This document shows, piece by piece, positions 5,692-40,098 of a stretch of 57,100 nt of DNA. A model generated the notes under the pieces. It had not been told where the DNA came from. It searched no databases and worked only from the letters and a program-made list of their open reading frames with translations. The stretch is from an uncultured bacterium (lineage in GTDB: Bacteria; Muiribacteriota; UBA6191), in contig CAZDAM010000007.1 in assembly GCA_964503595.1 (NCBI GenBank), positions 1 to 57,100 of the forward strand, written 5' to 3'. A program made the translations under genes and the position numbers. Positions within the stretch are counted from its first letter, which is position 1; every line of letters starts with the position of its first letter.

Positions 5692-5694
5692 TCC

Positions 5695-9838: not shown

Positions 9839-10210
9839 ATGATTACAGTTTTTTATGATGGCAAATGCGGGTTATGCTCCAAAGAGATCGACTACTACCG
9901 CAGGATCGCACCGGCTGAAGTTTTTGACTGGCGAGACATTACCCAGTCCTGGGACGAACTCGAAGAAGCTGGAGTAAGCCTTGTCGAAGGACTGAAAGTC
10001 CTGCATGTAATGGATCACCAGGGTAACCTGCACAAAGGTGTGGATGCCTTCATACTCATCTGGAAGCAGATGAAACTGTGGCGGGTTCTGGCATCCATCG
10101 TATCCCTTCCCCTTTTTCGCCCAATCGCTGATTCTGTGTACAGCCTGTTTGCCAGATGGCGTTTCAAAAGCCTGAAACACTGTCAGATGGCCATGGAACA
10201 GGCCAAATAA
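9839..10210 (+). CDS. DCC1-like thiol-disulfide oxidoreductase family protein (DUF393)
   Basis: VFYDGKCGLC (DxxCxxC); G.DAF..IW; Y..FAR.R. ATG at 9839 preferred over TTG at 9836. Confidence 0.85.
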   Translation: MITVFYDGKCGLCSKEIDYYRRIAPAEVFDWRDITQSWDELEEAGVSLVEGLKVLHVMDHQGNLHKGVDAFILIWKQMKLWRVLASIVSLPLFRPIADSVYSLFARWRFKSLKHCQMAMEQAK

Positions 10211-11010
10211 TGCCCGAACAGATTCTCAGGAAAGATTTCAGGGATCGGGACCATCTGGTTGCCTATGTAAAAGAGTTATCTCCCTGGGCCAAAGGCAAAT
10301 CATCCCCTATTCTTGGCGGAGTCAATCAGGCCCAGGAGATGCTAGAGAATATAGACCCCCTTCGTTACGGAAAAACCCGCAATTATGGTGATGGGAAAGT
10401 CACAGGGCTCTCACCCTACATCCATCATGGCGTTATTGATATCAATCAGATCAGAAATCATGCTCTCTCCAACTTCTCCAAACCAGAATTGATTACCAAA
10501 TTCATTCAGGAGCTGGCCTGGAGAGATTTCTGGCAGCGAATTGCCGAAAAGCATCCCGATTGGATCTGGAATGATATCGAAGATTACAAGACAGGCTTTC
10601 GGGCAGAAAATTACAGCGAGCAACTTCCAGAAGATATCAAGGCAGGACAAACCGGAATTGCCTGCCTGGACTTTTTCATCAGTGAATTGATGGAAACAGG
10701 TTATGTCCACAACCACGCCCGCATGTATCTGGCAAGTTACATCGTCCATTTCCGAAGAATCAAATGGCAGGCGGGAGCCAGATGGTTTCTCCAGCATCTG
10801 CTGGATGGTGATGAAGCCAGCAATAATTTTTCCTGGCAATGGATTGCCAGTACCTTCAGCAATAAACCCTACATTTTCAACCTTGATAATGTAAATAAAT
10901 ATTTTGGCAGTCTCGTGGATACCCGTCCTGAAAACAATCAGATCCTGAATGCCAGCTATGAGGAAATCGCCGCACGATTGTTCCCAAATCTGGGAGCTTC
11001 CCGTGGCTGA
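10210..11010 (+). CDS. Short photolyase/cryptochrome-like protein, FAD-binding catalytic domain only
   Basis: VTGLSPYIHHG, FIQELAWRDFW, TGYVHNHARMYLASY, HLLDGDEASNNFSWQWIAS. ATG at 10210 overlaps the upstream TAA (TAATG); about 266 aa; no N-terminal alpha/beta domain. Confidence 0.85.
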   Translation: MPEQILRKDFRDRDHLVAYVKELSPWAKGKSSPILGGVNQAQEMLENIDPLRYGKTRNYGDGKVTGLSPYIHHGVIDINQIRNHALSNFSKPELITKFIQELAWRDFWQRIAEKHPDWIWNDIEDYKTGFRAENYSEQLPEDIKAGQTGIACLDFFISELMETGYVHNHARMYLASYIVHFRRIKWQAGARWFLQHLLDGDEASNNFSWQWIASTFSNKPYIFNLDNVNKYFGSLVDTRPENNQILNASYEEIAARLFPNLGASRG

Positions 11011-11428
11011 AAAACTATTCTGGATTCATGACAAACACCTCACGGAGAGCTATGAAAATCTAAGATCAACAGGCAATGACTTCAAAGCTGTCTTCATCTG
11101 GGATGATCCATTTTTCCGAAAAAGAGCCTATTCTCTCAAACGGCTGGTCTTCATCTACGAAACCGTATCCCAGATGTCTTTGGATATTGTCCGGGGTGAT
11201 ACGGTGGAAGTCTTATCGTCTCTTTCACCAGATGGGATTGCAACGTTTTTTACACCGGATACAGAAATTCAAGGCCTGATTTCAAAATTGACCAGAACCC
11301 ATGAAATTGAAATCATCAGACCAGAACCGTTTGTACAAATCCCGGAAAAACATGACTTCAAACGATTTTTCAAATACTGGGACAAAGCGAAAAAAACAGC
11401 CTTTCTGAAAAATGGAAAAGATGCTTAA
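11003..11428 (+). CDS. Photolyase antenna (alpha/beta)-like domain protein encoded as a separate gene
   Basis: GTG at 11003 overlaps the upstream stop and follows GGGAG. LFWIHD..L, AVFIWD, YSLKRLVFIYET and C-terminal FKRFFKYW resemble the photolyase N-terminal domain and linker. Confidence 0.6.
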   Translation: MAEKLFWIHDKHLTESYENLRSTGNDFKAVFIWDDPFFRKRAYSLKRLVFIYETVSQMSLDIVRGDTVEVLSSLSPDGIATFFTPDTEIQGLISKLTRTHEIEIIRPEPFVQIPEKHDFKRFFKYWDKAKKTAFLKNGKDA

Positions 11429-11431
11429 TGA

Positions 11432-12961
11432 TTACATTTTATTCAGATTCCTGAAAAATCTTTCACTGTCGTCCCGGATTTCTTTTTTTCTCTCGTATCC
11501 CATCCGATCCAGGCTCTTGTACATCATTCGAATACGCTGATTGCTCTCAAGCTTTTTCCGGTTCCGGTCCAGAAAATCCCAGTAAAGATAGTTGAACGGA
11601 CATGCCTCGGAGCCATTCTTCCTGGTGACCTTATAGCGGCAGGTCTTGCAGTAGTCAGACATCTTACTGATGTAGCTGCCCCCGGCCGCATAAGGCTTGC
11701 TGGCCAAGTATCCACCATCCGCAAACAGGATCATGCCGGAAACGTTCGGCAGTTCAACCCATTCATAGGCATCTGCATAGACAATCAGAAACCATTCGTT
11801 GACATAGCGGGGATCAATCCCGGCAAGAAGAGCAAAATTGCCCAGGACCATCAATCTCTGGATATGGTGGGCATAGGCATTCTGCCGTGTTTCGGTGACA
11901 CACTGGCGAAGGCAGTTCATTCCCGTATCACCACTCCAGTAAAAATCTGGTAGCTCCCGTTTGGCAGCAAAGAAATTCTCTTCCGCATACTCAGGCATTC
12001 TAAGCCAGTAAATTCCGCGCACATATTCACGCCAGCCAATAATCTGGCGAACGAAGCCTTCCACCGCATTCAAAGGCGCCTTTTTTTGCTGATACGCCCT
12101 TTCCGCTGCCCTGACACATTCCAGAGGGAGAAGCAGACCGCAGTTCAGGTAAAAACTGATATGCGAATGGTATAGCCATGGCTCGCCCTGAATCATGGCA
12201 TCCTGATAGTCACCAAAAAGCGGGAGACGTTCATCGATAAAAAGTTTCAGAACCTGAAGGGCATCTTCCCGCGTAACAGCCATATAAAACGGTTCGAGAT
12301 CCCCAAAATGGCTCTCAAAACGCCGGGCCACCAATTCAAGAACATCCCGAGTGATGGAATCTGTCTTCCCTTTATAAGGCAGAGGAACCTTCAGATCATC
12401 CTTTGGTGGCTTGCGGTTTTCGGCATCATAGTTCCACTGCCCGCCAACCGGTTCACCATCCTGCATAAGGAGGTCATATTTCTTCCGCATTTCCCGGTAA
12501 AAATATTCCATGCGCAGCTGTCCGCGACCCCGTGCCCATCTGGCAAACTCTTCCTTGGAAATCAGAAAGCGATCATCCGCCCGGATCTCAACCGCAATGC
12601 CAAACTTACCCTGCCATTCCTGCATGGATTTCAGGACACGGTATTCTCCCGGATGGGTGACAATGATGCGATCAAAACGGTTCTTCTGGATCTGCCGTCT
12701 CACCTCGCCCGAAAAAGACCCAGCATTTTCAGGATCATCCAGTCTGGTATATATTAACCTGTAGCCTTTCTTCACAAGCCCGGCATAAAAATGCCGCATA
12801 GCAGAAAACAGAAAAGCTATCTTCTTCTTGTGATGTCTGACGTAAGTTGCCTCATCCCAGACTTCACACATCAAGACGACATCTTCGTCCCGGTTGCAGC
12901 CTTTAAGACTTGAAATGGATTCGGAGAGCTGATCACCAAGAATCAGGATAAGGCTGGCCAT
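11432..12961 (-). CDS. FeS-BCP cryptochrome/(6-4) photolyase (PhrB/CryB-like)
   Basis: LILILGDQLS, HHKKKIAF, GGQWNYDAENR, IIGWREYVRG, YAHHIQRLM, SKPYAAGGSYI; four Fe-S cysteines in NCLRQ, YCKTC and ACPFN. Confidence 0.92.
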   Translation of the reverse strand: MASLILILGDQLSESISSLKGCNRDEDVVLMCEVWDEATYVRHHKKKIAFLFSAMRHFYAGLVKKGYRLIYTRLDDPENAGSFSGEVRRQIQKNRFDRIIVTHPGEYRVLKSMQEWQGKFGIAVEIRADDRFLISKEEFARWARGRGQLRMEYFYREMRKKYDLLMQDGEPVGGQWNYDAENRKPPKDDLKVPLPYKGKTDSITRDVLELVARRFESHFGDLEPFYMAVTREDALQVLKLFIDERLPLFGDYQDAMIQGEPWLYHSHISFYLNCGLLLPLECVRAAERAYQQKKAPLNAVEGFVRQIIGWREYVRGIYWLRMPEYAEENFFAAKRELPDFYWSGDTGMNCLRQCVTETRQNAYAHHIQRLMVLGNFALLAGIDPRYVNEWFLIVYADAYEWVELPNVSGMILFADGGYLASKPYAAGGSYISKMSDYCKTCRYKVTRKNGSEACPFNYLYWDFLDRNRKKLESNQRIRMMYKSLDRMGYERKKEIRDDSERFFRNLNKM

Positions 12962-18886: not shown

Positions 18887-20050
18887 TCAGTCGGCTCCCA
18901 TTCTCTGATCGATTTTCAGGGAATACTCGTACTTCTTCAAAGCAAGGCCCACAATCTTGCGGGAAACCGGATCTTCGGCAGATCGGGCTGTCTCGATATG
19001 CTCGGCAAAAATAGCGTTGCAGAATCTCAAAAGATTCCGCGGCGAGTTTTCCGACTTCAGAAGAACGAACTCATCAACCTTGTCCCGAATTTCATCTTCA
19101 CAGACATTTCCAAGCCTGCCCAGAAGCTTGCCATCACGATTGAAGGCCATGATGCGCTTTTTCAGGACTTCAGCGAGTTTCTCCTGAGTCCAGGAAATGA
19201 CCTGGGACTGAATCTTGTCATTTCTCAGTCCGCATTTCTTAAGATTGTTGACACTCTCCGCCGGCACGAAGAATTTAAAAGCATAGAAATCACGTTGGAC
19301 CACTTCCAGAGCAGCAATCAGAGGTCCCAGCAGAAGACCCGCTTTTTCCGGCTCTTTCATGGTTTTAGAAGTCTCATCCAGCTTATCAATGAAAACGTAA
19401 CAGGAATGATATCCCAAAGCCTTCAGAATCGATGCCATTGCATCCATGGCATAAAGCCCTCGCTCCAAAGCTTCGTCTTCCGTAGTCTCAAGACTCAGGA
19501 AGAGTTCGCGACCCTGTTTTTGAGGATAGCTTCTCAGAAGTTTTTCAATCAAGGACTGAAGTCTCGGATAATGGAGTTCCTTTTCGCCTTCCTTGAAATG
19601 AATCTCCATCATGTGGAAAAGATCCACCTTATGCTGGTTTTTCAGCTTCTTGCGCAATTCAGAGCTTTCTGCCAGAAGGGGAACCAGCTCAAGAATCAGA
19701 ACACGCAGAAACTCCAGCAGGTGATCCTTGATAGTGACCTGGGAGATTTCTTTCTGGCGGGTAAAAGGGAAATTGGAATACTCAATCTGAAAAATCTGTC
19801 CCTTATGCTGAGAGGCAATCCGATCCGAAAGCATTCTTCTTAAGGTCGTCTTGCCAAATCCCCGCATTCCCAGAACCAGAAAAGGCTGAGGATCCTCAGG
19901 AATGCCAAACACTGACTCAAAATAGGGAGGCAGAACCACAAAATTCTGCAAGTCCCTTTCCTTGTCTGCATCAAAGGTATTAAAAGGATGATGGATAAAT
20001 CCCTTGGCCTTTAAAAATGCCTTCATTTCAATCACTGAGAACTCTCCCAT
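18887..20050 (-). CDS. P-loop NTPase, Sll1717-like/STAND-like, no effector domain
   Basis: HPF...AD.E..L..F V.PP.F; Walker A GMRGFGKT; Walker B YVFIDKLDE; sensor region ISWTQEKL..VLKKRI; SPRNLLRFC. Confidence 0.7.
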   Translation of the reverse strand: MGEFSVIEMKAFLKAKGFIHHPFNTFDADKERDLQNFVVLPPYFESVFGIPEDPQPFLVLGMRGFGKTTLRRMLSDRIASQHKGQIFQIEYSNFPFTRQKEISQVTIKDHLLEFLRVLILELVPLLAESSELRKKLKNQHKVDLFHMMEIHFKEGEKELHYPRLQSLIEKLLRSYPQKQGRELFLSLETTEDEALERGLYAMDAMASILKALGYHSCYVFIDKLDETSKTMKEPEKAGLLLGPLIAALEVVQRDFYAFKFFVPAESVNNLKKCGLRNDKIQSQVISWTQEKLAEVLKKRIMAFNRDGKLLGRLGNVCEDEIRDKVDEFVLLKSENSPRNLLRFCNAIFAEHIETARSAEDPVSRKIVGLALKKYEYSLKIDQRMGAD

Positions 20051-27186: not shown

Positions 27187-27440
27187 AATTTTCTACCCTT
27201 ATTCACAAAACCGCTATTCATCGCTATCGGGAGCCAAAGAAGGATTCTCAGGTTCGATTCCAGGCTGATTCCCAAAGATTCAAGTTATTCACATCGGCAG
27301 TCAAGAACTCGTAACTTCTTCACTTTCCGCTAAAAATTCCCGTCAAATTCAGAGTTATTGTCATTTGCGATCCAGGCCTTCACATTTCAAAGTGAATGCT
27401 TGAAACTCTTAAAGCCTGATAAACAGACGCTTTCTTTGAG

Positions 27441-27510
27441 TTATTCACAAATTCACATCCCTTAATACTATGTACGATCTATTGATCTATAGATCCTGAT
27501 CTAAGATCCC
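27441..27510 (+). promoter_or_regulatory. Putative unwinding element: tandem DnaA boxes, DnaA-trio-like repeats and GATC cluster
   Basis: TTATTCACA and AAATTCACA (27441-27457), then TCCCT, TAA TAC TAT G TAC, then GATC at 27476, 27484, 27492, 27498 and 27505. Confidence 0.65.
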
Positions 27511-27883
27511 ATATAAGTGGCCATTATAGGTCAGTGGTTGAACCCATACAATCTTTTCCATCTTTGGCTTGAATTTGGATGGCTGAATCTCTTTTTCCAG
27601 ACACAAGGGGTCTGTTCTGTCAATTTTTGTATGCATCAACACCGCACCCCTTTTTTCAGGCCTCTTTCACAGGGCATAAACCTTTCACAATTTATTCGCA
27701 GAGGGTGAACAGTTTCTGAAACATTTTCCAGCAGTTTCACAGGAAAAAATCCTTACTTATTCACAGAGAACAGGTTTCATGTGAATGAAATTGTGTAAAA
27801 CATGCCTGAAATGAGCTTGATGACATCTGGATCGACAGAGAGGCTTAATTTTCTGTTGGTCTTTGTTGGGATATGTTTGGACC

Positions 27884-27899
27884 TGTTTCACGTGAAACG
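27884..27899. promoter_or_regulatory. parS centromere-like site
   Basis: TGTTTCACGTGAAACG, 15/16 match to TGTTTCACGTGAAACA, about 210 bp from parB. Confidence 0.88.
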
Positions 27900-28108
27900 C
27901 CTTTTAATGGGCTTTATTTGAATCGATATTTGATCTGAATTTTTCAAAAATCTTTGAAGAACGATCCAGAGGCCAGAATTTAAAGCAAGGCCAATAGATT
28001 TAAAAAAAAATGAAGCCGGTTTTTGGGATAAAACAGAACAGGGTCCAAATCCCGCTTCAGCAAGAAGGAAGGGCAAAGCTCTGAGGAAAAAATCAGGGGA
28101 TCAGAAAA

Positions 28109-28969
28109 TTACTTCTGGAAACGAGAGAGGAAATCAGCAAGTTCCTCTTCATTCTGAAAATCCAGTTCCAGGCGCAGCTTCTTTCCAGAAGACTTTACAT
28201 TCCAGGGAATCTGAGCGAAATGGCTGGATAATGAGCTTCGCATATCATCGGATACGGAAGTACGATTGGGGCCATGGGGAGATTTACTCTGGGGAGCAGC
28301 CTGAAGCTGTTTGACGTATTGTTCGATCTGACGAACATTGAGTCCCTGCACAATGACTTCACTGGCTGTTTTTCGAATTCTGTCTTCATCAGCAAGAGTC
28401 AAAAGAGCCCTGGCTCCCCCGGGGCTTAACATGCCACTCTGAACATATTCCAGAACTGAGGGAGGAAGCTTTAAAAGACGCAGGGAATTGGTAATATGGC
28501 TGCGGCTTTTCCCCAGATTCTGGGCCAGTTCCTCATGTGTGAGCTGAAACTCAAGAGCCAGTCTCTGGTAGCTGATGGCTTCGTCAATCGGATTCAGATC
28601 TTCGCGCTGGATGTTTTCCAGAACAGCATGAACCAGCATGGTCCGATCATCCAGATCCTTAATAATTGCCGGAATCTGTTCGCGGCCAAGGAATTCAAAG
28701 GCCCGAAAACGCCTTTCTCCATGGACGATCTGATAGCCAGTCTCAGTCTTTCTTAAGGTAATCGGCTGCAAAAGCTCGTTTTCAGCGATACTCTGGGCCA
28801 GCTCTTCAATGGATTCGCGAGAAAAAACACGACGAGGCTGAAAAGGATTAGGCTCAATTCGGCTCAGATCAATTTCAGTTGCCGAAGAGGCGTCTTCCTG
28901 ACGGGAAGCCGCGCTGTTTTGTAATAAGGCTCCCAGGCCTTTTCCTAGTGCGCGTTTTCCTTGAGACAT
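28109..28969 (-). CDS. parB: ParB/Spo0J chromosome partitioning protein
   Basis: RALGKGLGALL, PNPFQPRR, LLQPI, GERRFRA, ENIQREDLNPIDEA, HTH KSRSHITNSLRLL. Confidence 0.96.
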   Translation of the reverse strand: MSQGKRALGKGLGALLQNSAASRQEDASSATEIDLSRIEPNPFQPRRVFSRESIEELAQSIAENELLQPITLRKTETGYQIVHGERRFRAFEFLGREQIPAIIKDLDDRTMLVHAVLENIQREDLNPIDEAISYQRLALEFQLTHEELAQNLGKSRSHITNSLRLLKLPPSVLEYVQSGMLSPGGARALLTLADEDRIRKTASEVIVQGLNVRQIEQYVKQLQAAPQSKSPHGPNRTSVSDDMRSSLSSHFAQIPWNVKSSGKKLRLELDFQNEEELADFLSRFQK

Positions 28970-29724
28970 TCAAGAAGCTCCTGAGTAAATTCGCGGTAAT
29001 GTTGAGCCCCCGCAGACTTCGGATCATACATGCTGATCGGTTTTCCGTGACTGGGAGCCTCGGAAAGCTTCACATTGCGGCCAATAATGGTTTTGAAAAC
29101 ATGCTGAGGAAAGTGCTCATTGACCTCATCCACAATCTGGGATGTCAGGTTTGTGCGGTGATCCGCCATTGTAAGCAGCACTCCAAGAAGATTCAGGTCC
29201 GGATTCAGATCTCCCTGAATCAGATGAACCGTATTCAGAAGCTGAGTCAGTCCTTCCAGAGCAAAATACTCACACTGAAGAGGAATCAGAAGATCTGTTG
29301 CTGCTGTTAAGGCATTGACGGTCAGAAGACCTAAAGAGGGAGGACAGTCGATGACAATCCACTCATACTTTGAAGTCAGCGGTTTGAGGGCTTTTTTCAG
29401 CTTGTTTTCTCTGGAAAGCTCGCCGACAAGCTCGATTTCGGCCCCAGCCAGCTGAATCGAAGCCGGGAGAATATCGAGTTTGTCCACAACCGTGGCCTGC
29501 AGGAGTTCCCGAGCCTCGGTATCTTCGATCAGCATGTTGTAAACGCATTTTTCAAAACCATTCTTCTCAATACCAAGACCAGAAGAGCAGTTGCCCTGGG
29601 GATCAAGGTCCACGGCCAAAACCGGCTTGCCGGTTTCCTGAGCCAGAATGGAGGAAAGATTGATGGTCGTGGTGGTTTTTCCCACCCCGCCTTTTTGATT
29701 TACAACAGCTATAATTCGCGTCAT
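28945..29724 (-). CDS. parA: ParA/Soj ATPase
   Basis: NQKGGVGKTT, DLDPQGN, IDCPPSLG, QCEYFALEGL, LSEAPSHG. Confidence 0.96.
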   Translation of the reverse strand: MTRIIAVVNQKGGVGKTTTTINLSSILAQETGKPVLAVDLDPQGNCSSGLGIEKNGFEKCVYNMLIEDTEARELLQATVVDKLDILPASIQLAGAEIELVGELSRENKLKKALKPLTSKYEWIVIDCPPSLGLLTVNALTAATDLLIPLQCEYFALEGLTQLLNTVHLIQGDLNPDLNLLGVLLTMADHRTNLTSQIVDEVNEHFPQHVFKTIIGRNVKLSEAPSHGKPISMYDPKSAGAQHYREFTQELLECLKENAH

Positions 29725-29847: not shown

Positions 29848-31104
29848 CTAATCTGAGGTATTGCGATCATCAACGATCATCATGGATCGTACACGATCTT
29901 CCTTGATCGCCATCATTTTGTGTAAAACAGTTGCACATTCATCCAAATTCCCCACATTCTGGCCTATTTTGCAGGCCTGGTGCTGCCAGATCGACACCTC
30001 GGCTTCGGTGGCCCGGGAATCATGGGAAAGATGAAGAAGGCTTTTGTATGTGAGGGGGAGTAGAAACCCCAGAGGGTGATCCCTGGGTTCGCTGATTCCA
30101 CTGGAATCAAAGCCCGAGCAGACACAGGAAGCAGCTTCGATTTTCCAGGTAGGAAGGGAGTGTTTTTGGGAGAGTGTCTGACGCAGAATCAGCTGATGAA
30201 AAGCATTCAGAATGGTTTCATCATCATTATTCAGAAGAACTTTTTCTCTTAAGATTGCAGCTGATTCATTCATTTTAAAGCTTAGAGGGTAGTCACCGGG
30301 TTCGACCCAGATTTGAAGTTCTGGCGGGGAACTGATCTGAAAAACCCTGTCCCAGGCGGTTTCAAGAATCCGGGAAAGAGCGTTTCTCTGGAACCAGAAT
30401 ACCGGAGATTTCAAAGAAAGAACCTGATTTTGAACCTCAATCTGAAATGGAGCCGGTTTCAAGGATTCAAGCCATCTTTGGGCTCTGATCTGCTGGGACT
30501 CAGATGCTTTTTTTCCAAAAAAAACAGTTTCCTGACTGAATTCGGAATTCTTTGCCAGAGCCTGATAGAAAGGATTCTGGCGAATCGATTCAGGAAGTTC
30601 TGGCAATAGCCCGTAGCGATAGCTCTGCCAGGCCTGCATAGGAGTCTTTTCATACAGCTCATCTCTTAAAACTCTTCTGGCAGCACCGGGTTTGTTGGCC
30701 ATGAAGAGCATGTCCACCATGATGGGATAGGAAGGTGGGAAAGGCGGGAGCGAGTCGTTTTGGTAAAAAGACTCCAGAAAATCCCGCCAGGCCAGAAAAA
30801 TCCGGGCTTCTTCACCTTCAGGAACCTCATTGAGCCACCGAGCCTGAACCAGCCAGGAAATCTCAGGAGATTTCAGACTTTGAAGCAGCCACTTCCCGGC
30901 CTTGAGGTTTCCCGATTTTAGAAGTCGGGCTGCCAGACTCTGAGCGAGGGCGGTTCGCTTGAGAGCAATGGCTTCCTGAAGCCAGGATTCCTGAGCCTCA
31001 TTTTTTGGGGGGGGAGGAATCAGGATCAGGGGATCCGGTAATGCTGCCAGATGAATTCCGGTCAGAAGAAGGAAAACAATCAGGCAGCGTTTTTTTTCAG
31101 CCAT
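29848..31104 (-). CDS. Secreted hypothetical protein, possibly a degenerate peptidase MA-like fold
   Basis: N-terminal hydrophobic signal; helical N-half; AFHQLILRQ...LPTWKIEAAS resembles HExxH...PxWxxEGxA without intact metal ligands. Confidence 0.55.
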   Translation of the reverse strand: MAEKKRCLIVFLLLTGIHLAALPDPLILIPPPPKNEAQESWLQEAIALKRTALAQSLAARLLKSGNLKAGKWLLQSLKSPEISWLVQARWLNEVPEGEEARIFLAWRDFLESFYQNDSLPPFPPSYPIMVDMLFMANKPGAARRVLRDELYEKTPMQAWQSYRYGLLPELPESIRQNPFYQALAKNSEFSQETVFFGKKASESQQIRAQRWLESLKPAPFQIEVQNQVLSLKSPVFWFQRNALSRILETAWDRVFQISSPPELQIWVEPGDYPLSFKMNESAAILREKVLLNNDDETILNAFHQLILRQTLSQKHSLPTWKIEAASCVCSGFDSSGISEPRDHPLGFLLPLTYKSLLHLSHDSRATEAEVSIWQHQACKIGQNVGNLDECATVLHKMMAIKEDRVRSMMIVDDRNTSD

Positions 31105-32951
31105 GCAATTAAAAGAGCCAGATCGGACTGGCGGACTCCGGAGATCAGAGATGCCTGAGCGATATCCAGGGGTTGAACTTCCTTGAGTTTCTGTCGGCTT
31201 TCATTCGAAAGAGCCGGGATTCCGTCATAATTCATATTCCGTGGAATTTGAAGTCCGGTCAGTTTCTGGCGCTCCTGCAGGATCTCCCCCTGTTTTTTGA
31301 TATATCCCTCGTATTTCAGTTCGATTACAGCTTCACGGACGGCTTCTTTTGAGTGTTGCCTACATAGACCATCAAATTCAGGACAAAGTACCCTGATGGT
31401 ATCCGAATGGACCTCAGGACGTTTTAGAAGCTCTGAAAGGGGTTTTCTTCCGTTCCATGGAGAAGTCCGGATCTGGGGATGAGCCGCAAGGACTTCGGAT
31501 CCGATCAGGGTCTGACGCAAAAACCCATGGATGGCATTCATGTCATTTCGCTTGGTTTCAAAACGCTCTATTCTTTCTTGTGTTGCAAGACCTGCTTCAT
31601 AGCCAATCGGGGTCAGACGGGCATCGGCGTTATCGTGGCGGATGAAGGTTCGATGCTCTACCAGGGAAGTGAACATCCGGTAGGGTTCCCTGGTCCCCTT
31701 GGTGACCAGATCGTGAATCAGAACTCCGATATAGCTGTTCTCCCGGTGAATGGGTACCGGACCCTTTCCTGAAATCTTGCGGGCAGCATTGATACCGGCG
31801 ACGAGTCCCTGTCCGGCAGCTTCTTCATAGCCACTGGTTCCATTGACCTGTCCGGCAAAGAAGAGATTTTCCACAATCTTGCTTTCCAGGGAAGGGAAGA
31901 GCTGAATCGGATTGAAGAAATCGTATTCCACAGCATATCCCGGCCGCAGCATATGAGCTTTTTCAAGACCAGGGAGGGTACGGACCATCTGAATCTGAAC
32001 CTGCTGGGGGAGAGATGTAGAAAAGCCCTGAAGATAGATTTCATTGTTGAAACGGGATTCAGGTTCAAGATAGAGAAGGTGGGAGGGCTTGTCCGGAAAC
32101 TTGACGAACTTGTCCTCAATGGAGGGACAGTAACGGGGTCCGGTTCCTTCAATCTGACCTGAAAACAGGGGAGATAAGTGAAGATTGGATTCAATCACTT
32201 CCCGTGTTTTATCCGTGGTCTGGGTAATGTGACAGTCAACCTGCTCACCTTTTAACTCATCTGTCAGAAAGGAGAAATGAGGCATGGGATCCTCACCCTT
32301 TTCAATTTCAAGTCCCTTGGTATCCATACTTGAATTGAGAATGCGGGGGGGAGTTCCGGTTTTCAGCCGTCCTTTTTCGATTCCAAAGCAGGTAATGCTT
32401 CTGGAAAGATGAATCGATGGGGGCTCGCCAATGCGACCTGCAGAAATCTGAGTGGGCCCGATATGGCATTTTCCATTGAGGAAAGTCCCTGTAGTCACAA
32501 TGATGGCCTGGGCAAAATAGCTTTGATCCGCAACGGTCTTAACCCCAATGGCTTTCTGATCCTTTTCCAGAATTTCCGTGACCATACCCTGTCTTAACCA
32601 GAGTCCCGGCTGGGATTCCAGCACCCGCTTCATATGAAGCTGATACATGATCTTGTCAGCCTGGGCTCTTAAGGCCTGAACAGCGGGGCCTTTCTTGGAA
32701 TTCAGGGTGCGAATCTGCAAAAGGGTCTGATCAATGGTCACCCCCATCTGCCCACCCAAGGCGTCAATTTCCCTTACGATATGCCCTTTGGCCGTTCCTC
32801 CGATGGAAGGATTGCAGGGCATCAGGGCGATATTATCCAGATTGATGGTAAGAACCAGGGTTTTCAGACCCATGCGGGATGAGGCCAGGGCAGCTTCAAG
32901 CCCGGCATGCCCGGCTCCGATTACAATAATGTCAAAGTGATTGGCACTCAT
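31080..32951 (-). CDS. mnmG: tRNA uridine-5-carboxymethylaminomethyl(34) synthesis enzyme MnmG (GidA)
   Basis: GAGHAGLEAA, MPCNPSIGG, KGPAVQALRAQAD, RLKTGTPPR, GPRYCPSIEDK, AGQVNGTSGYEEAA, EPYRMFTS. Confidence 0.97.
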   Translation of the reverse strand: MSANHFDIIVIGAGHAGLEAALASSRMGLKTLVLTINLDNIALMPCNPSIGGTAKGHIVREIDALGGQMGVTIDQTLLQIRTLNSKKGPAVQALRAQADKIMYQLHMKRVLESQPGLWLRQGMVTEILEKDQKAIGVKTVADQSYFAQAIIVTTGTFLNGKCHIGPTQISAGRIGEPPSIHLSRSITCFGIEKGRLKTGTPPRILNSSMDTKGLEIEKGEDPMPHFSFLTDELKGEQVDCHITQTTDKTREVIESNLHLSPLFSGQIEGTGPRYCPSIEDKFVKFPDKPSHLLYLEPESRFNNEIYLQGFSTSLPQQVQIQMVRTLPGLEKAHMLRPGYAVEYDFFNPIQLFPSLESKIVENLFFAGQVNGTSGYEEAAGQGLVAGINAARKISGKGPVPIHRENSYIGVLIHDLVTKGTREPYRMFTSLVEHRTFIRHDNADARLTPIGYEAGLATQERIERFETKRNDMNAIHGFLRQTLIGSEVLAAHPQIRTSPWNGRKPLSELLKRPEVHSDTIRVLCPEFDGLCRQHSKEAVREAVIELKYEGYIKKQGEILQERQKLTGLQIPRNMNYDGIPALSNESRQKLKEVQPLDIAQASLISGVRQSDLALLIAWLKKNAA

Positions 32952-34819
32952 GAGGTTTTTTCCAGTGACAGATGTCCTTGTTGGTGAGCATGAATCAAAA
33001 GGGCAATCTCTGTATGCTGGATTCCCTTCAATTTTGCTGCCTGGCCCATATTCATCGGCCTGACTTCATTCAGACGGTTGGCAATATCTTCACTCAAACC
33101 CTGAATCTTATGGTAGTCCATACTGGTTTTCAAAAGCATGGCATCCAGTTCATCCTGATGGCGCATCCGTTTTTTCAGGCGGTTTAGAAAGAAATCATAC
33201 TTGGCGAGAATTTCCAGACGGTAGGCCCAGATGGAATCAAGGACGGTTTCATGGCCAAAACGGGCCAGATCGGTGTAATGGATTTCTTCACGGGCCAAAA
33301 GATTGAAAAGGGAAATCGGATTTTTGATGCTTTTGGATCCGAGTTCTTCAAGGGTTTGAAGAGTCTTTTTATCTGGGCGGATCATGGATGTGTTCAGAGC
33401 CATTCTTTCCCTTTGCATCAGTTGAAGGGAAGCCTCGAACTCCTCAAAGGTTTCTTTTGGAACCAGGCCCAGTTCATAACCGGTTTTGAGGAGTCTTTCC
33501 TCGGCATTGTCGGTACGAAGATGAAGACGGAATTCAGAAGAAGAGGTGGTCACTCTTAGGGGTTCTGTTCGATCATTGGTAACCAGCTCATTGAGCATTT
33601 CAGCCAGATAGGAAGAGGTTGAGGGAAGCAGGAAGGGATCTTTTCCCTGAGCTTTCTGATGGGCATTGATTCCAGCAATCAGTCCCTGGGCAGCGGCTTC
33701 TTCATAGCCGCTGGTTCCGTTGATCTGCCCGGCGGCAAACAGGTTGCCAACCTTTTTGAATTCCAGGGTCTTGAAGAGCTGGGTGCTTTTGACAGCGTCG
33801 TATTCAATGGCATAACCATAGCGCAGAATCCTTGCATTCTGAAGACCGGGAATGGTCTTTAGAATGTCTTCCTGGGCCTCTGGAGGCATGGATGTGGTCA
33901 GGCCCAGAAGATACCATTCATCGTGAAAATCTGATTCGGGCTCGACAAAGATATGGTGAGTTTCCATATCAGGAAAACGGATGACCTTCCGATCGATCGA
34001 AGGGCAGTGCCTGGGGCCGTGCTGGGTGATATTGCCGAGTTTCAAAGGAGATTGGGGAAGCCACTTTTCAATGACCTCGATCGATTCTCCGGTGGTATGA
34101 GTCAAATAGCAGTTTCTTTGTTTCTGACGGGTTTTTTTGCCTGTAAAGCTTGTCAGGCCAGGGTGACCGGGAAGAGGCTCCATCTCTTCAAAATTCAGAG
34201 TGCTGCCGGCAACTCTGGGAGGAGTCGCAGTCTGTAGGCGGGTAATTTCAATGTTCAGTTCATCCAGACTCTGACGTAGAGCTTTGGAGGGGGAATGACC
34301 GGCTGGACCTCCCTCGGTACGGCTGTTTCCGAGGATGATGTTTCCGTTCAGGAAAGTGCCGGTGGCCAGAATCACAGCTTTGGCTTCAAACTGAAGACCG
34401 GTTTCAAGTTCGACTCCATATACGGCAGAGTCTTTGTGCAGAAGCCGGACGGCTTCTCCCTGCATCAGGGAGATGTTGGGGTGGGCCTCCATTCTGGCTT
34501 TGACATTCAGGTGGTAAAGAATTTTGTCAGCCTGGGCCCTTAAGGCACGTACGGCAGGTCCACGGGATTCATTGAGTTCGCGCATCTGAAGATAGGCATC
34601 ATCGACGAAATGGCCAATTTGTCCCCCCAGAGCATGGATTTCCCGAACCAGATGACCTTTGCCGGGCCCTCCTACGGAAGGGTTGCAGGGCATCATGGCG
34701 ACACACTGCAGACTGGTTGCCAGAATCAGGACATTGCTTCCCAGATTGGCAGCAGCAAAAGCGGCTTCAGTTCCGGAATGTCCGGCACCAATGACAATGA
34801 CATCGTATTGATCATGCAT
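32948..34819 (-). CDS. Second, divergent full-length MnmG/GidA paralog
   Basis: GAGHSGTEAA, MPCNPSVGG, RGPAVRALRAQAD, RLQTATPPR, GPRHCPSIDRK, AGQINGTSGYEEAA; 623 aa; ATGA overlap with mnmG. Confidence 0.92.
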   Translation of the reverse strand: MHDQYDVIVIGAGHSGTEAAFAAANLGSNVLILATSLQCVAMMPCNPSVGGPGKGHLVREIHALGGQIGHFVDDAYLQMRELNESRGPAVRALRAQADKILYHLNVKARMEAHPNISLMQGEAVRLLHKDSAVYGVELETGLQFEAKAVILATGTFLNGNIILGNSRTEGGPAGHSPSKALRQSLDELNIEITRLQTATPPRVAGSTLNFEEMEPLPGHPGLTSFTGKKTRQKQRNCYLTHTTGESIEVIEKWLPQSPLKLGNITQHGPRHCPSIDRKVIRFPDMETHHIFVEPESDFHDEWYLLGLTTSMPPEAQEDILKTIPGLQNARILRYGYAIEYDAVKSTQLFKTLEFKKVGNLFAAGQINGTSGYEEAAAQGLIAGINAHQKAQGKDPFLLPSTSSYLAEMLNELVTNDRTEPLRVTTSSSEFRLHLRTDNAEERLLKTGYELGLVPKETFEEFEASLQLMQRERMALNTSMIRPDKKTLQTLEELGSKSIKNPISLFNLLAREEIHYTDLARFGHETVLDSIWAYRLEILAKYDFFLNRLKKRMRHQDELDAMLLKTSMDYHKIQGLSEDIANRLNEVRPMNMGQAAKLKGIQHTEIALLIHAHQQGHLSLEKTS

Positions 34820-34920
34820 AATTCTTCACCCGATTATATCGCTGTGGGCGGGAAGTCACCGGATTGAATTGCTGCCCACAGCCTGGAATCTACAGTGTGC
34901 CAGCCTGAATCGGGGATCTG

Positions 34921-35736
34921 TCAATAACTCTCCACAATATCGCGCACAATCGTTTCGGAAAAGGCCAGATATTTCTGGAGAAGTGCTTCGGGACCGAACC
35001 AGGCGGTAATCATCGCGGCCAGAATGATCCAGGGACCAAAGGCAATCATGGTCATACCCTTTTTCTTTTCCATGAAGCGGGATTTGATCAGAAAGAAGAT
35101 CCCGAAGAAGGAACCGGTCAGAGAGGAGAGGGCCAAAGTCATCAGGCCCCCCTGAACACCGAGGATACTGCCGAGAAAAAGCATCAGTTTGATATCCCCT
35201 CCACCCATGGCTTCGCGTCCCAGAAATCGAGTACAGAGATTGGCAATTGCCATGAGTGTTCCTGCACTGAGGATTGCGCCCAGAAGGGACTCGGTCAGGG
35301 AGATCGTTGGCTGGGTGAATATCTGGGCAGCAGCGGCGTAGGAGATTCCAATCCCCAGCCCTAGCCAGTTGAGTTCATCCGGAATGATGTACCAGTGAAA
35401 ATCAATGCGGGCAATAGTGAAACAGATGGCCCAGGTAAACAGGATCAGAATCGGTGGAAAGAAATGCTCCGGCTTCCCAGCCCACGGCAGGGCGATGACT
35501 GCGAAAATGAGGAAACGGATCAGAGCCCCGTCAGATAATGGCCATACCGGCTGAAGAAGACGGCGAATGCCGCCGGCTTCGGGAACAATTTCAAAGGCAG
35601 CCTGGGGCCGGCAGCGCTCCTGGAGTACTTTCTGTTCCAGCTGGTTCTCAAGCTGGGCAAAAGGAGCCAGACGATCAAACCAGAACTCGGTAAGAAGCCA
35701 GAAAAACGGTATGCAGACAAGAAATTCAAGATTCAT
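34921..35736 (-). CDS. A24-family prepilin peptidase
   Basis: Catalytic Asp motifs IDFHWYIIPD and MGGGDIKL; IAFGPWI; polytopic; lacks the N-terminal CxxC pairs of PilD. Confidence 0.85.
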   Translation of the reverse strand: MNLEFLVCIPFFWLLTEFWFDRLAPFAQLENQLEQKVLQERCRPQAAFEIVPEAGGIRRLLQPVWPLSDGALIRFLIFAVIALPWAGKPEHFFPPILILFTWAICFTIARIDFHWYIIPDELNWLGLGIGISYAAAAQIFTQPTISLTESLLGAILSAGTLMAIANLCTRFLGREAMGGGDIKLMLFLGSILGVQGGLMTLALSSLTGSFFGIFFLIKSRFMEKKKGMTMIAFGPWIILAAMITAWFGPEALLQKYLAFSETIVRDIVESY

Positions 35737-35753: not shown

Positions 35754-36491
35754 TCAGCGTACGGACTGAATCATTCCACCCACATATCGTACATCAATCG
35801 CTGTACCATTGCGATCCAGAACTGAGCTGTTCTGGGTATCGAATCCGATTGGAGTCGAGAACTTTCCGGCGGACCGGACATTGACCAGAACGGATAAGAG
35901 GACTCCGTCATAGAAATTGCGGGCCTGAATTTCCCGAGTCAGACTATGGGCAATCCAATAGTAGCCACATTCATTTCCACAATCTCCAACCCGGCTGAGA
36001 GGATTGGTTTCAGTTCTTCCCACAAGAATGGAAAACTGGGGATCAAGATAGGAACGCAACCGGACAGACTCATTGCCTTCAATCAGGGAAACTGATTCAG
36101 CGGAGGAGTCCGCAATTTTCAGCAGTGAGGAATTGAAACGCAGAACCAGAGGCATATCGTAGATCTGCTGGGTGGAAGTCTGAATCTGATTAGCGACAAT
36201 GTCGAGCTGAAATACATTATCGCCTAAATCCACTGAACTCAGGCGAATATAGATGGAGTTGGAAGCAATCTGGTTTTCCTGAATCTGAATTTCAGACTGA
36301 GTAGGAAAACTGGTATCCATTTGCTGGAAGCTGAAACGTCTTCCTTGGGATGTGGATGGAGTCTGGGAATTGTTGGAGGAATTGCCATCAAAGACACTGC
36401 CATCGGATGCCTGACAACCAATGAGCTGCAGACAAAAGATCAGGGACAGGAAAAAAATCCCGAATTTAAGGAATCGATTCACCATAGGCAC
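35754..36491 (-). CDS. Lipoprotein with cohesin-like domain
   Basis: Lipobox LIGC; S/N/T/Q-rich linker; beta-rich FQLDIVANQI...IYDMPLVLRFNSSLLKI...EG...GVLLSVLVNVRSAGK...IGFD..NSSVLDRNG. Confidence 0.65.
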   Translation of the reverse strand: MPMVNRFLKFGIFFLSLIFCLQLIGCQASDGSVFDGNSSNNSQTPSTSQGRRFSFQQMDTSFPTQSEIQIQENQIASNSIYIRLSSVDLGDNVFQLDIVANQIQTSTQQIYDMPLVLRFNSSLLKIADSSAESVSLIEGNESVRLRSYLDPQFSILVGRTETNPLSRVGDCGNECGYYWIAHSLTREIQARNFYDGVLLSVLVNVRSAGKFSTPIGFDTQNSSVLDRNGTAIDVRYVGGMIQSVR

Positions 36492-39400
36492 TCAAAAGAA
36501 GCTGCATGTCCTTTTCATCAACAATCTGATCCAGGTTGATATCGAGACGGCAATCAGTTTTCAGGAATTCGGTGCACTGGCGGTTTCGAATCGCCTGAGC
36601 AAGGATGGCTATATCGTAAGCATCAATCTGGTTGGAAGCGGGATAACTCAGATTTGTGATGCGTCTGGACATATCAAAATTCAGCATGGTGACAGTGAAG
36701 GTCTCATTGGGACGGATCTGTTCTCCGTCAATGACAACCTGAATCACCGCAGTCTTTGAAATCGTACTTTTTACAGAGCGCAGCAACTGAACATAGGTCC
36801 CGTCTCCCGAGGAAGTTACCGGGCCAGCCAGGACTCCCTGGGTGGTTTGAATGGAAAGAATGGACTGAGGAGGAAGAAAAAGAACTTCTCCGAAGGTATT
36901 ACGGGGGCGAACAACAATGCGTGTCTGGGTCAGCCCATTGGCATGCAGAACAGGATTGGAAATTCGGACTTCTGTCTTTTGAGGATCTGCTGAGCCGATT
37001 CCGACAAATTGGACTTCCCGGGTCTGAAGGCTGAGCCGATTGTCGATTCTCACCGTAATCTGGGAAGTTGTAGAGAAATTGGTGGAACGTAGAGACAACC
37101 GATAGGTTCCATCCTCAAAGTTTACGGTAGGTACATTTTCCTTGCCTGCAGGTACAAGAATTGTTCCTCCTGAATTGGCGGGCTCAGCCCTTAAAAGGGT
37201 TCCTTCGCTGGCTGAAACCGTGATGCGGTTGGCATCGATGGAAGATCCCATGATGCTTCCATCCGGGAAGATAGGGATGATTCGAATCTCTGTCTGACTC
37301 TCACCGTTGGCTTCAATCGCTGTATTTCCGATTTCAACTTGAAGACGGGTCGGATTGACATCCACAAGCTGGACAACGGCATTGTTGGAAATATCGCGAA
37401 ATCCGTTGCTTTGAAGGCGGCCCCGAACCAGAATGGCGCAGTTGGTGGTAATTCCAATTTGGGGGAGAGCCGTCAGAACAGCTGTTAGAATGATCGTGTT
37501 TCCGGTAGAAAAGGCAATCGGGCGGACACTGATTCCGTTGGTTGTCGAATCTCCAGAAGCGCTGGAAAGGGAAGAATTCACCCCATGGCAGTTGGTGGGT
37601 GAGCTGAGATTGAGCCGGATCAACTCTGAGATATCGGAATTTACGGGAGTTCCATCTTCAAAACGAGGCAGAATTTCAATTTGGGTGGTATCTCCGGATC
37701 CCAGGGTCAGATATTGCCGCTGGGCACGGATTTCAGTTTTAAAAGGATCGGCATAAGAGAAGGTAATCTCAGATCGCTGGGTCAGATTCTCACCCAGAAG
37801 TTCGGCGGCAATGTTGGCTTTGGTAGCATTCGGGCCAGCTGAGACTGTAAAGCGGTAGAAAGGAGAACCAAAATAACTGGTGGAAGCTCCAAGGCGGGGA
37901 CTTGGAAAGGCATCCAGACCCCCATCCGACATCAGAATAAGCGGACCGATGACGGTCGAGATACTGACTCCGGTAACCGATTGTCCGGTTTCAGTGGAGA
38001 GGACGCGAAGCCGCATGTCATGAACGGGGTTCAAAACAAAAGGAACGGGAGTCTGATCGGAAAAATTGGGGTAAAGATCCACAAGAACGGTTGGAGTGGT
38101 GATATTGGGAAGGCCAATATGAACCCGGCTTTGAGAGACAAAAAACTGGGAACCACTGGTAGACGCTGAAATGAAATTCACCGACAGGGGAGGTAGTTCG
38201 ACTCCATCAAAAAACGGTCGCAGGCTGACATTGGCACGTCCGGCAAAGGATGCGGTTGCCAGAAAAGTGGGAACGGCTGCATTTACATCCTTTTCAAATG
38301 CGGTAGTGACGACTGTAGCCGGCCGATCGGACTGAAAAAGGAGAAAACTCCTTGATGTACTCAGGTCGGGGCTGGCTTCAATCGATGTGCCATCTGAAAA
38401 TCGGGGCTGGACTCTTATGGTGGCGGGGGCGGCATAGACATTCGGGGCATAGCCGAAAATGTCGGTTCCGCTTGTTTTGATGCCATGAATGATATCGGGA
38501 ATCAGTTCGACTACGCTGCGATCCGTCTGGGGTTTTTCTATCGACAGGAAGGCTGATTTGACCAGTTCATTTCCATTTGCGGAGCTGTCAAAATAGACTT
38601 CCACTTTATTGAGACAGCGCTGAATTCCATCGGGAAGGGAAGGGGCATACAGTTCAAAACGATAGCGAATCGGAGATCCAGCGAGAAAGGTTGGTTGGGC
38701 CTGGGTGGTGGGAGAAGTCCGGTTCAGTGAGGCTATCGATACTGTCTGACAGAGAGTGTTTGCTTGAGAATCAATCCCCTGGGAAGTGTATTCGGCGAAG
38801 GAGGCCCGGGAAGTCCGGACCTGCAGTCGGGGAGAAATGTTTTCGGTGAGGGCAAAACCGCTGGCATCACGAGCAGTGAAAAACCCCAGAGTCCAGCTCA
38901 GATTTTGATCTGCCCCACCGGTTTTTCCATTGCCATAAAGAATGGTTTTGTCCAGAGCCAGTTCACTGCCACCCAGTTCGACATTGCTGGAACCAAAATT
39001 TGTGATAAACTGGAGGGAAGCACTTCCACCAGGAGTCATGGCAAAGGATGCTGCGGTATTGGCTCCATCTCCGTCCTCCAAAGCGGATTCCCGGGTATCA
39101 TGCCAGAACTCCAGAGAAAAATTCCGCGCCTTGGAAAGCCAGGTCTGTTTTTCATTGGTGCTCAGGCGTTTCAGAAATGTGAAATCCTGTTCGAGCTGCA
39201 CCTGGCGGCTGGCATAATTGGGGACTTCAATCGGAAACGGTTCAATGAAGGCCTCGTAGTTTCCCTGAGGAACCCCCTGAATCCGAAAAGTACCATCGTA
39301 AAGAACTCCCTGATTGGAAGCCAGTCCGGAGATTCCGGAAATGGCAATAGTCCGATCCAGCACATTCCAGAGCGTTACATGGGCACCGCTGACACTGTCT

Positions 39401-40098
39401 CCGGAGAATTCTCCACTCAGGACCCTGCCGGTTACAGTTCCGGAATAACGATTGGTGGAAGCCGGGTAGGTCGAGGCAAAAAGGGCAATATCATCCTGGC
39501 TTAAGGACTTCTGATCATCACTGTAATAGGGAAACATGGTGGCTTCAGAAATTGTCCTGGCCTTCAGTACACGGGTTCGGATCGCGGAGTGATCAAAACC
39601 AAGAAGATGGCCGATTTCATGAGTTGCTACACCCTGAAGAGAAATCTGGTTGGCGCTGACATTGGAATTTCCAGTTACAAAGACAAAACTGGCCTTGTTA
39701 AAGAGAATGTCAGCATCGACAATTTCTCCTGTCTGAGAGTTTGCGGTCGTCAGAGTCAGGCCGATGATCCCGGAATTGAGCTGACCCCCGGAACTGAAAC
39801 TGACATGGTTGGCAAAATCGGGAGTGGCCGATGATGCGGGAGTTGTTGCGGTCTGGATCAGACTCAGGCTGATGCTGGCATCACTGACACTGTTCCAGAC
39901 GCCAATGGCAGCCTGCATTTCAGAAATCACTTCGGCATTGGAGAGTGAGGATGCTGTCGAAGGGTTTACAAAAAGGTTCAGGTTGCTGCTGCTCCAGCGC
40001 ATGGGGGTGAAAGTCCCGGTAGCGGATCGGGCCAAGTAGGGGATTCCAGCCATGCAGCAGGTCTGAAAAATCAGAAAAAGGCTGAACAGACGCATCAT
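36466..40098 (-). CDS. Secreted matrixin-like (metzincin) metalloprotease with Ig/invasin-like repeats and C-terminal dockerin-like domain
   Basis: Signal peptide; HEIGHLLGFDHS with Met-turn ATMFP; prealbumin-like GTVTGRV...DGTFRIQGVPQGNY; repeats such as ANG..QT.I.V.PR...G...DGTY; C-terminal NQIDAYDIAIL and DINLDQIVDEKDMQLLLSAYG. Confidence 0.85.
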   Translation of the reverse strand: MMRLFSLFLIFQTCCMAGIPYLARSATGTFTPMRWSSSNLNLFVNPSTASSLSNAEVISEMQAAIGVWNSVSDASISLSLIQTATTPASSATPDFANHVSFSSGGQLNSGIIGLTLTTANSQTGEIVDADILFNKASFVFVTGNSNVSANQISLQGVATHEIGHLLGFDHSAIRTRVLKARTISEATMFPYYSDDQKSLSQDDIALFASTYPASTNRYSGTVTGRVLSGEFSGDSVSGAHVTLWNVLDRTIAISGISGLASNQGVLYDGTFRIQGVPQGNYEAFIEPFPIEVPNYASRQVQLEQDFTFLKRLSTNEKQTWLSKARNFSLEFWHDTRESALEDGDGANTAASFAMTPGGSASLQFITNFGSSNVELGGSELALDKTILYGNGKTGGADQNLSWTLGFFTARDASGFALTENISPRLQVRTSRASFAEYTSQGIDSQANTLCQTVSIASLNRTSPTTQAQPTFLAGSPIRYRFELYAPSLPDGIQRCLNKVEVYFDSSANGNELVKSAFLSIEKPQTDRSVVELIPDIIHGIKTSGTDIFGYAPNVYAAPATIRVQPRFSDGTSIEASPDLSTSRSFLLFQSDRPATVVTTAFEKDVNAAVPTFLATASFAGRANVSLRPFFDGVELPPLSVNFISASTSGSQFFVSQSRVHIGLPNITTPTVLVDLYPNFSDQTPVPFVLNPVHDMRLRVLSTETGQSVTGVSISTVIGPLILMSDGGLDAFPSPRLGASTSYFGSPFYRFTVSAGPNATKANIAAELLGENLTQRSEITFSYADPFKTEIRAQRQYLTLGSGDTTQIEILPRFEDGTPVNSDISELIRLNLSSPTNCHGVNSSLSSASGDSTTNGISVRPIAFSTGNTIILTAVLTALPQIGITTNCAILVRGRLQSNGFRDISNNAVVQLVDVNPTRLQVEIGNTAIEANGESQTEIRIIPIFPDGSIMGSSIDANRITVSASEGTLLRAEPANSGGTILVPAGKENVPTVNFEDGTYRLSLRSTNFSTTSQITVRIDNRLSLQTREVQFVGIGSADPQKTEVRISNPVLHANGLTQTRIVVRPRNTFGEVLFLPPQSILSIQTTQGVLAGPVTSSGDGTYVQLLRSVKSTISKTAVIQVVIDGEQIRPNETFTVTMLNFDMSRRITNLSYPASNQIDAYDIAILAQAIRNRQCTEFLKTDCRLDINLDQIVDEKDMQLLLSAYGESIP

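Follow-up and report, generated by a model that had tools for sequence, protein, structure and literature searches.

The window analysed here, a 57,100-nucleotide (nt) stretch of contig CAZDAM010000007.1 from an uncultured bacterium (Muiribacteriota, UBA6191), carries two genes for the tRNA-modification enzyme MnmG side by side on its minus strand, referred to below as mnmG-A (upstream) and mnmG-B (downstream), and their products as A and B. This enzyme is almost universal; MTO1, the human homologue, is known as a disease gene. As the first-pass annotation, made from the sequence alone, had reported, both genes are full length, each encoding 623 amino acids (aa), and they overlap: the TGA stop codon of A and the ATG start codon of B fall within one ATGA (junction CTCATGAGTG). 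The open reading frames (ORFs), the junction and the family scores bear this out. Both proteins exceeded the cut-off of the NCBIfam equivalog model TIGR00136 (524.85 bits), with 690.2 bits for A and 799.1 bits for B, and the Pfam domains GIDA, GIDA_C_1st and SAM_GIDA_C were found in each. The two are 41% identical over 619 aa (BLASTP, E 1e-159). The top sequence match in the PDB was E. coli MnmG for both (E 2.5e-142 for A and 1.6e-183 for B), and their closest solved relatives are the MnmG proteins of E. coli, C. tepidum and A. aeolicus. A single-chain AlphaFold2 model, made for A only, had a mean predicted local distance difference test (pLDDT) score of 88 and a predicted template modelling (pTM) score of 0.90, with a confident C-terminal domain, and matched E. 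coli MnmG (9hip_C) with a template modelling (TM) score of 0.92. A thus shares the four-domain fold of the E. coli enzyme (PDB 3CES, 3CP2, 9HIP-9HIR; PMC12397908). In E. coli, one gene supplies a homodimer, whereas the window has two genes.

The nearest other family is TrmFO (Gid), which has a related flavin adenine dinucleotide (FAD) domain and the same flavin-iminium chemistry as MnmG. TrmFO is a folate/FAD-dependent tRNA m5U54 methyltransferase of about 435 aa, without the C-terminal helical domain. Identity as TrmFO was rejected: A scored 96.4 and 93.1 bits where the cut-offs are 262 and 428.65, B scored lower (79), both proteins have 623 aa, and the model of A reached a TM score of only 0.36 with TrmFO 3g5r.

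All the motif strings quoted in the first-pass annotation were found in the translations: MPCNPS, RLQTATPPR, GPRHCPSIDRK and EPLRVTTSSSEFRLHLR in A, and MPCNPS, RLKTGTPPR, GPRYCPSIEDK and EPYRMFTSLVEHRTFIR in B. We compared both clades with the functional residues listed from mutagenesis data in Table S3 of PMC12397908, whose E. coli numbering is used below. G13 and G15 of the FAD-binding motif (GxGxxG) and the catalytic cysteines C47 and C277 were invariant in 31 A-clade and 26 B-clade sequences, so the retention of the FAD motif and both cysteines noted earlier for the two copies extends to their clades. N48, G52/53, K56, R96, T199, T201, K283, Y308, Y377, R427, R436 and R515 were also invariant in both. 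The exceptions were G200, replaced with alanine in A; R432, replaced with serine in A and leucine in B, so that neither protein has this arginine; and E585 and K589, which are lost from A and unconserved in its clade. Most of the residues that mutagenesis has tied to catalysis are therefore kept in both copies.

A differs from the E. coli enzyme at six pocket positions, which form a signature that we call Q-type: K198Q, G200A, Y276H/F, E281D, D282R and S313T (Q196, A198, H271, D276, R277 and T308 in the numbering of A itself). B has the canonical K, G, Y, E, D and S at these positions, and is referred to as K-type. In our alignment, the signature was present in 71/71 Q-type sequences (70/71 at position 276) versus 0/120 others, and the sites are near-invariant outside the Q-types. 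A search of 1.84 billion cluster representatives with a Q-type profile yielded 4925 relatives at E <= 1e-30; of the best 150 clusters (50% identity), which were inspected for the signature, 13 had it, all near the top of the list. The Q-type subfamily is therefore small and rare.

Phylogenies were inferred by neighbour joining (NJ), using simply corrected distances. Bootstrap support was 100% for the A clade and likewise for the B clade, and the reciprocal motif differences between the two copies are fixed features of these clades rather than noise. A grouped with the upstream copies of Riflebacteria (bootstrap 54-66%) and B with the downstream copies of the same group (55-82%), whereas A and B were recovered as sisters in 0 of 100 bootstraps. 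A lineage-specific tandem duplication is not upheld by these trees, which place A as a member of an old Q-type subfamily of MnmG, rather than as a recent local duplicate. A is MnmG by all sequence and fold criteria, yet it belongs to a subfamily of which no description was found. A literature search retrieved no relevant paper on MnmG paralog pairs, a Q-type subfamily or Fusobacterium mnmG, the terms "mnmG1/mnmG2" being allele names, and as far as this search shows the Q-type would be a previously undescribed MnmG subfamily. B is an ordinary MnmG apart from an unusual helix at 432-437.

A half-signature was seen in four Anaerolineae loci (L058, L065, L072 and L073) with a single MnmG, which combines Q198 and N200 (RLQTNTP) with the canonical Y276 and E281. 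These sequences branch near the Q-type group, and could represent either an intermediate or a variant that arose separately.

Scanning GTDB genomes with the A protein alone detected no relatives. Other MnmG pairs came from an alignment-based search that covered one genome for each GTDB species, followed by tblastn of the retrieved loci. The Q-type gene lies 5' of the K-type gene in 10 window-lineage loci, 17 Riflebacteria loci, one further locus with an adjacent pair (L081) and seven Bacillota genomes; in every pair the upstream copy has the Q signature and the downstream copy is canonical. Most adjacent Q/K pairs overlap by 1-20 nt. The order in the 17 Riflebacteria/Ozemobacter loci is yidC-jag-mnmE-copy 1 (Q)-HEAT-repeat protein-copy 2 (K)-rsmG, and that in the seven Limnochordia-like Bacillota metagenome-assembled genomes (MAGs) is rpmH-rnpA-yidD-yidC-jag-mnmE-copy 1 (Q)-copy 2 (K)-rsmG-noc-parA-parB. 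Where mnmE is present, it lies directly 5' of the Q-type gene and encodes the canonical FCIGK tail. The Riflebacteria (Ozemobacter, Rifleibacterium) and Bacillota pairs thus have the same order and signature as the window, but mnmE precedes and rsmG follows them, whereas the window lineage has neither nearby; Riflebacteria also insert the HEAT-repeat gene between copies that overlap directly in the window. Judged from these loci, three lineages of phylum rank share the order Q then K. The first-pass annotation had also attached meaning to the paralog standing where mnmE would be expected. Given the order mnmE, Q, K elsewhere, this is a coincidence of the window lineage, in which the slot held by mnmE in the other pair-bearing lineages is occupied by a prepilin peptidase gene. 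Some Firmicutes have curated database entries named "MnmG 1" and "MnmG 2", which would presumably match the Bacillota pairs.

The HEAT-repeat protein of Riflebacteria has about 700 aa, and its gene has overlapping starts and stops with its neighbours (L029, 9889-12015). The gap between the two mnmG genes in these loci (L012-L078) is 0.9-2.8 kb, and the gene has no counterpart in the window lineage.

In Fusobacteriota (Fusobacterium, Ilyobacter and Cetobacterium), a Q-type gene lies directly after mnmE in 21/21 loci. Its product, annotated plainly as MnmG, is about 40-42% identical to A and has the same signature (R[YF]QTATPPR, GPRHCPS[LI]DRK and T313). No second MnmG was found within the 5-kb surroundings searched in these 21 loci, whereas A has a K-type partner; Fusobacterium genomes are generally annotated with one mnmG. 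The Q-type is thus apparently able to work alone in Fusobacteriota. A Q-type MnmG was also present in a Wallbacteria MAG. Because it occurs in this MAG and apparently alone in Fusobacteriota, we regard the Q-type as an old MnmG isotype and not as a neofunctionalised copy of the window lineage.

Homologues of A form a tight clade of 25 clusters at 51-96% identity, the next sequences being at <=47%, and those of B a clade at 60-71%, with the next at <=52%. Members of the two clades co-occur on the same contigs in 10 independent window-lineage loci that have both copies, and in an eleventh (L006) the contig ends just inside the second copy. The same 4-nt overlap was found in 8 of these 10 loci, and synteny is usually complete. 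A contig from DNA run X2 covers the A/B junction (32652-33479) with zero differences. The junction is not an assembly artefact, since the layout is the same in the 10 independent loci and in the X2 contig. Fragments matching A, B and parA at 100% identity occurred in a marine metatranscriptome; this is weak evidence for their expression, because they are only fragments and DNA carry-over is possible. Both proteins are intact, conserved and under selection.

The cryo-electron microscopy structures of the E. coli MnmEG complex published in 2025 provide a framework for these differences (PMC12397908). The complex is asymmetric, the MnmE and tRNA sites overlap, and in the alpha2-beta2 structure MnmE docking and FAD binding are confined to one of the MnmG subunits. 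MnmG-specific motif 1 (273-287) is the proposed binding site for nicotinamide adenine dinucleotide (NADH) and contacts the MnmE tail, N310 binds the MnmE carboxy-terminus, residues 554-625 form MnmE interaction surface 2, and R432 is required for tRNA binding and activity (PMC12397908). The Q signature sites lie beside T199/T201 and in or next to motif 1, and S313 is three residues from N310. The signature changes line the pocket that surrounds FAD and C277 and in which the C-terminal tail of MnmE docks.

The core domains are equally conserved in the Q- and K-types of the same genomes. Residues 554-625, however, are less conserved in Q than in K in all three lineages (0.43/0.60, 0.45/0.51 and 0.44/0.54), and E585, P595 and G606, which are invariant in 120/120 non-Q sequences, vary in paired Q-types. 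The solo Q-type of Fusobacteriota keeps R275, R432, Y435, P595, G606 and D611, which are changed or relaxed in paired Q-types. Residue 432 is an arginine in 64/64 single-copy K-types and in 120/128 K-type cluster representatives, but a serine in the A clade and a leucine in 23/26 members of the B clade. The B clade has a fixed helix, LVEHRT (R432L/A433V/Y435H/L437T), and T437 occurs in 0/128 other K-type representatives. Where a K-type partner is present, the Q-type is thus under looser constraint both in its MnmE-docking C-terminal subdomain and at the tRNA-binding R432. The near-invariant motif R405-x3-Y-[IL]-G-V-x2-D-D-L (R405..G411..D415-D416) is degraded in A and kept in B in the window lineage and, reciprocally, kept in Q and degraded in K in most Riflebacteria, which points to a need for only one intact copy in each pair. 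Taken across the lineages, constraints appear to be relaxed in a complementary way when Q and K are paired.

Our best reading is that A and B are two co-translated, catalytically competent isoforms that share out MnmE-dependent modification of U34. The two anciently diverged isoforms would be made from one transcript by coupled translation, and we infer that both would act with MnmE on the wobble uridine, the ancestral job being divided between them. Within the MnmE-MnmG complex, a Q/K heterodimer may replace the MnmG homodimer, and would make permanent the asymmetry seen in the alpha2-beta2 complex of E. coli. We favour this arrangement, with a probability of roughly 0.45 and only narrowly over the two-enzyme alternative below, because of the coupling and fixed gene order, the pattern of one intact copy per pair and the intrinsic asymmetry of the published complex. 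The interpretation given in the first-pass annotation is thus retained in part: divergence with subfunctionalisation is plausible, whereas a tandem duplication and the idea built on the mnmE position are not.

Several points weigh against a heterodimer, which we infer from how the genes are ordered and coupled and from the complementary relaxation. Each isoform appears to have a complete catalytic set, and neither copy needs the other in principle, because Q seems to be solo in Fusobacteriota and K is solo in most bacteria. The intervening gene between Q and K in Riflebacteria is a looser arrangement than would be expected of obligate subunits. A single MnmG subunit carries both surfaces that contact MnmE in the E. 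coli structure (PMC12397908), and a Q-type with a degraded docking domain would therefore still need MnmE at its own active site. The mnmE gene of the source genome was not seen, mnmE being absent from the window-lineage flanks retrieved (L001-L011; 6-8 kb requested, shorter at contig ends). Finally, all Q-types fell into one NJ clade after removal of the signature columns, but with a weak bootstrap support of 34%.

Alternatively, A and B may be separate homodimeric enzymes that both use MnmE and differ in nucleophile (glycine, ammonium, a taurine-like compound or another), in the reductant at the proposed NADH site or in the set of tRNAs modified, in which case there would be two xm5U34 activities in the cell. 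We consider this a live possibility, at odds below even. The signature sites adjoin T199/T201, C277, K283 and motif 1, the full catalytic set appears to be present in both isoforms, and the Q-type stands alone after mnmE in the 21 Fusobacteriota loci, so it is apparently self-sufficient. The Q-type-bearing lineages are mostly known as anaerobes, a lifestyle that would suit a changed reductant. MnmEG is also known to be promiscuous, accepting glycine, ammonia and taurine (PMC10723064). However, two independent enzymes leave unexplained both the constant gene order, with its stop/start overlaps, and the relaxation of MnmE docking and tRNA binding in paired, but not solo, Q-types, and the link from the signature to the chemistry is a guess, since no residue is known to set the choice of nucleophile.

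A redundant or decaying duplicate, with one working copy and the other kept for dosage, acting only as a regulator or on its way to being lost, would be in keeping with the lower score of A on the family model and with the K-type-invariant columns (80 scored, the signature positions having been removed from 84), of which the window-lineage A copies retain 91.7% and the B copies 99.3%. However, relaxed selection on the paralog, named beforehand in the first-pass annotation among the signs that would tell against its proposal, is not what we found: in the comparison of A with a 96%-identical relative (L167), the ratio of nonsynonymous to synonymous substitution rates (dN/dS) was 0.042 over 623 codons at a dS of 0.45. 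A is under strong purifying selection. In the same comparison for B, dN was 0 over the first 105 codons. A is also full length, with its catalytic residues apparently kept and core domains as conserved as those of B, its clade spans 51-96% identity across 25 clusters, and three distant lineages have kept the Q-K pairing. Redundancy is already contradicted by these selection and conservation data, and is largely refuted. The recent horizontal gain of a foreign mnmG beside the resident gene, or a chimeric assembly, is very improbable despite the non-sister relationship of A and B and the patchy distribution of Q-types, since the G+C content and third-position G+C content of the two genes (A 0.498/0.510; B 0.499/0.518) match each other and those of neighbouring genes, independent contigs cover the junction, and any transfer must be ancient because the two clades mirror the same genome set and each groups with the Riflebacteria copies of its own type.

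It is quite possible, if somewhat short of an even chance, that the pair is an obligate Q/K heterodimer or that the Q pocket adds a different group to U34 through another nucleophile or reductant, and either would make the Q-type an unrecognised functional branch of MnmG. A functionally distinct Q branch would be an unrecognised branch of a highly conserved tRNA-modification enzyme, and could be tested in cultured Fusobacterium. It is still a matter of debate how a single site brings together MnmE, tRNA, FAD, NADH, folate and the amine, and a natural second isoform could reveal which features are needed only once per dimer and which residues set the choice of nucleophile or cofactor. Databases and annotation pipelines give both copies the same name, and Fusobacteria apparently depend on the variant form.

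The features of the window are collected in Table 1. The order on the minus strand is the M10-peptidase-like giant protein, the 245-aa protein, the prepilin peptidase, A, B, the 418-aa unknown, parA and parB. The exact TATAAT lies about 14 nt 5' of the A start codon and may be the -10 element of a promoter for the operon, with GGTGAAG as a candidate ribosome-binding site; a consensus promoter scan missed this TATAAT because its -35 match and spacing are poor. A scan of the A-B interval for promoters and terminators returned nothing convincing. Neither mnmE nor rsmG was found in the window. The prepilin (type IV leader) peptidase gene is kept at the same position in L001, L003 and a JGI contig. 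Relatives of the source organism are labelled Ca. Cloacimonadota or candidate phylum UBP17 in public records, and the organism itself occurs in marine, seawater, pond and landfill metagenomes.

Table 1. Features of the window (positions on the whole stretch; strand and basis as recorded).
Feature	Positions	Strand	Basis
1850-aa protein, with ABC-transporter ATPase and HlyD-family genes	139-8603		seven Calx-beta domains
284-aa photolyase-domain ORF and adjoining 509-aa protein	10156-12961		DNA photolyase FAD-binding domain; DPRP family
387-aa Sll1717-family P-loop ATPase	18887-20050		
dnaA	25777-27186		gyrB and gyrA alongside
dnaA-parB intergenic region, probable oriC, 3 kb from the mnmG pair	27187-28108		boxes; GC skew
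parB	28109-28969	minus	translation; syntenic homologues with ParB_N/HTH_ParB
parA	28945-29724	minus	translation; syntenic homologues with Pfam CbiA/AAA_31
418-aa ORF, start overlapping the end of mnmG-B by 25 nt	29848-31104	minus	ORF list
mnmG-B, canonical K-type MnmG, 623 aa, downstream gene	31080-32951	minus	ORF list; TIGR00136
ATGA stop/start overlap of mnmG-A and mnmG-B	32948-32951	minus	sequence
mnmG-A, Q-type MnmG isoform, 623 aa, upstream gene	32948-34819	minus	ORF list; TIGR00136
TATAAT (34838-34833) and purine-rich GGTGAAG (34830-34824), 5' of the mnmG-A start	34824-34838	minus	read by eye
Prepilin (type IV leader) peptidase gene, directly 5' of mnmG-A	34921-35736	minus	Pfam Peptidase_A24, E 8.9e-16
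245-aa protein	35754-36491		no family match
1210-aa protein	36466-40098		N-terminal matrixin (M10) peptidase domain; invasin D3 domain

The product of the 418-aa ORF has a hydrophobic segment at its N-terminus and no family match in library scans. Its similarity to the 515-aa protein that takes its place in L001 is weak (E 4e-5), and the counterparts at this position in other loci have 428-554 aa. It is very fast-evolving and lineage-specific. A role as a conserved third partner was rejected, this ORF being specific to the lineage and unrelated to the HEAT-repeat protein of Riflebacteria.

The spacer between dnaA and parB contains four exact TTATTCACA boxes on the same strand (at 27199, 27285, 27441 and 27757), with 0.41 expected in the window, and the minimum of the cumulative GC skew, near 28 kb, coincides with it. 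This spacer is probably an oriC with a variant DnaA box.

Even in distant lineage members (L001, L003 and the JGI contig), the genes for the 1210-aa and 245-aa proteins remain in synteny 5' of the two mnmG genes. Genes for an ABC-transporter ATPase and an HlyD-family membrane-fusion protein come after that for the 1850-aa protein, which has seven Calx-beta domains, and the set looks like a type I secretion system with a giant adhesin-like substrate. The 387-aa Sll1717-family ATPase, encoded between gyrA and a DASS transporter gene, scored 210 bits with the anti-phage model DS41_1, below its cut-off of 370. The 284-aa ORF, with a DNA photolyase FAD-binding domain only, adjoins a 509-aa photolyase-related protein (DPRP family) encoded on the opposite strand, and may be a truncated or split photolyase gene.

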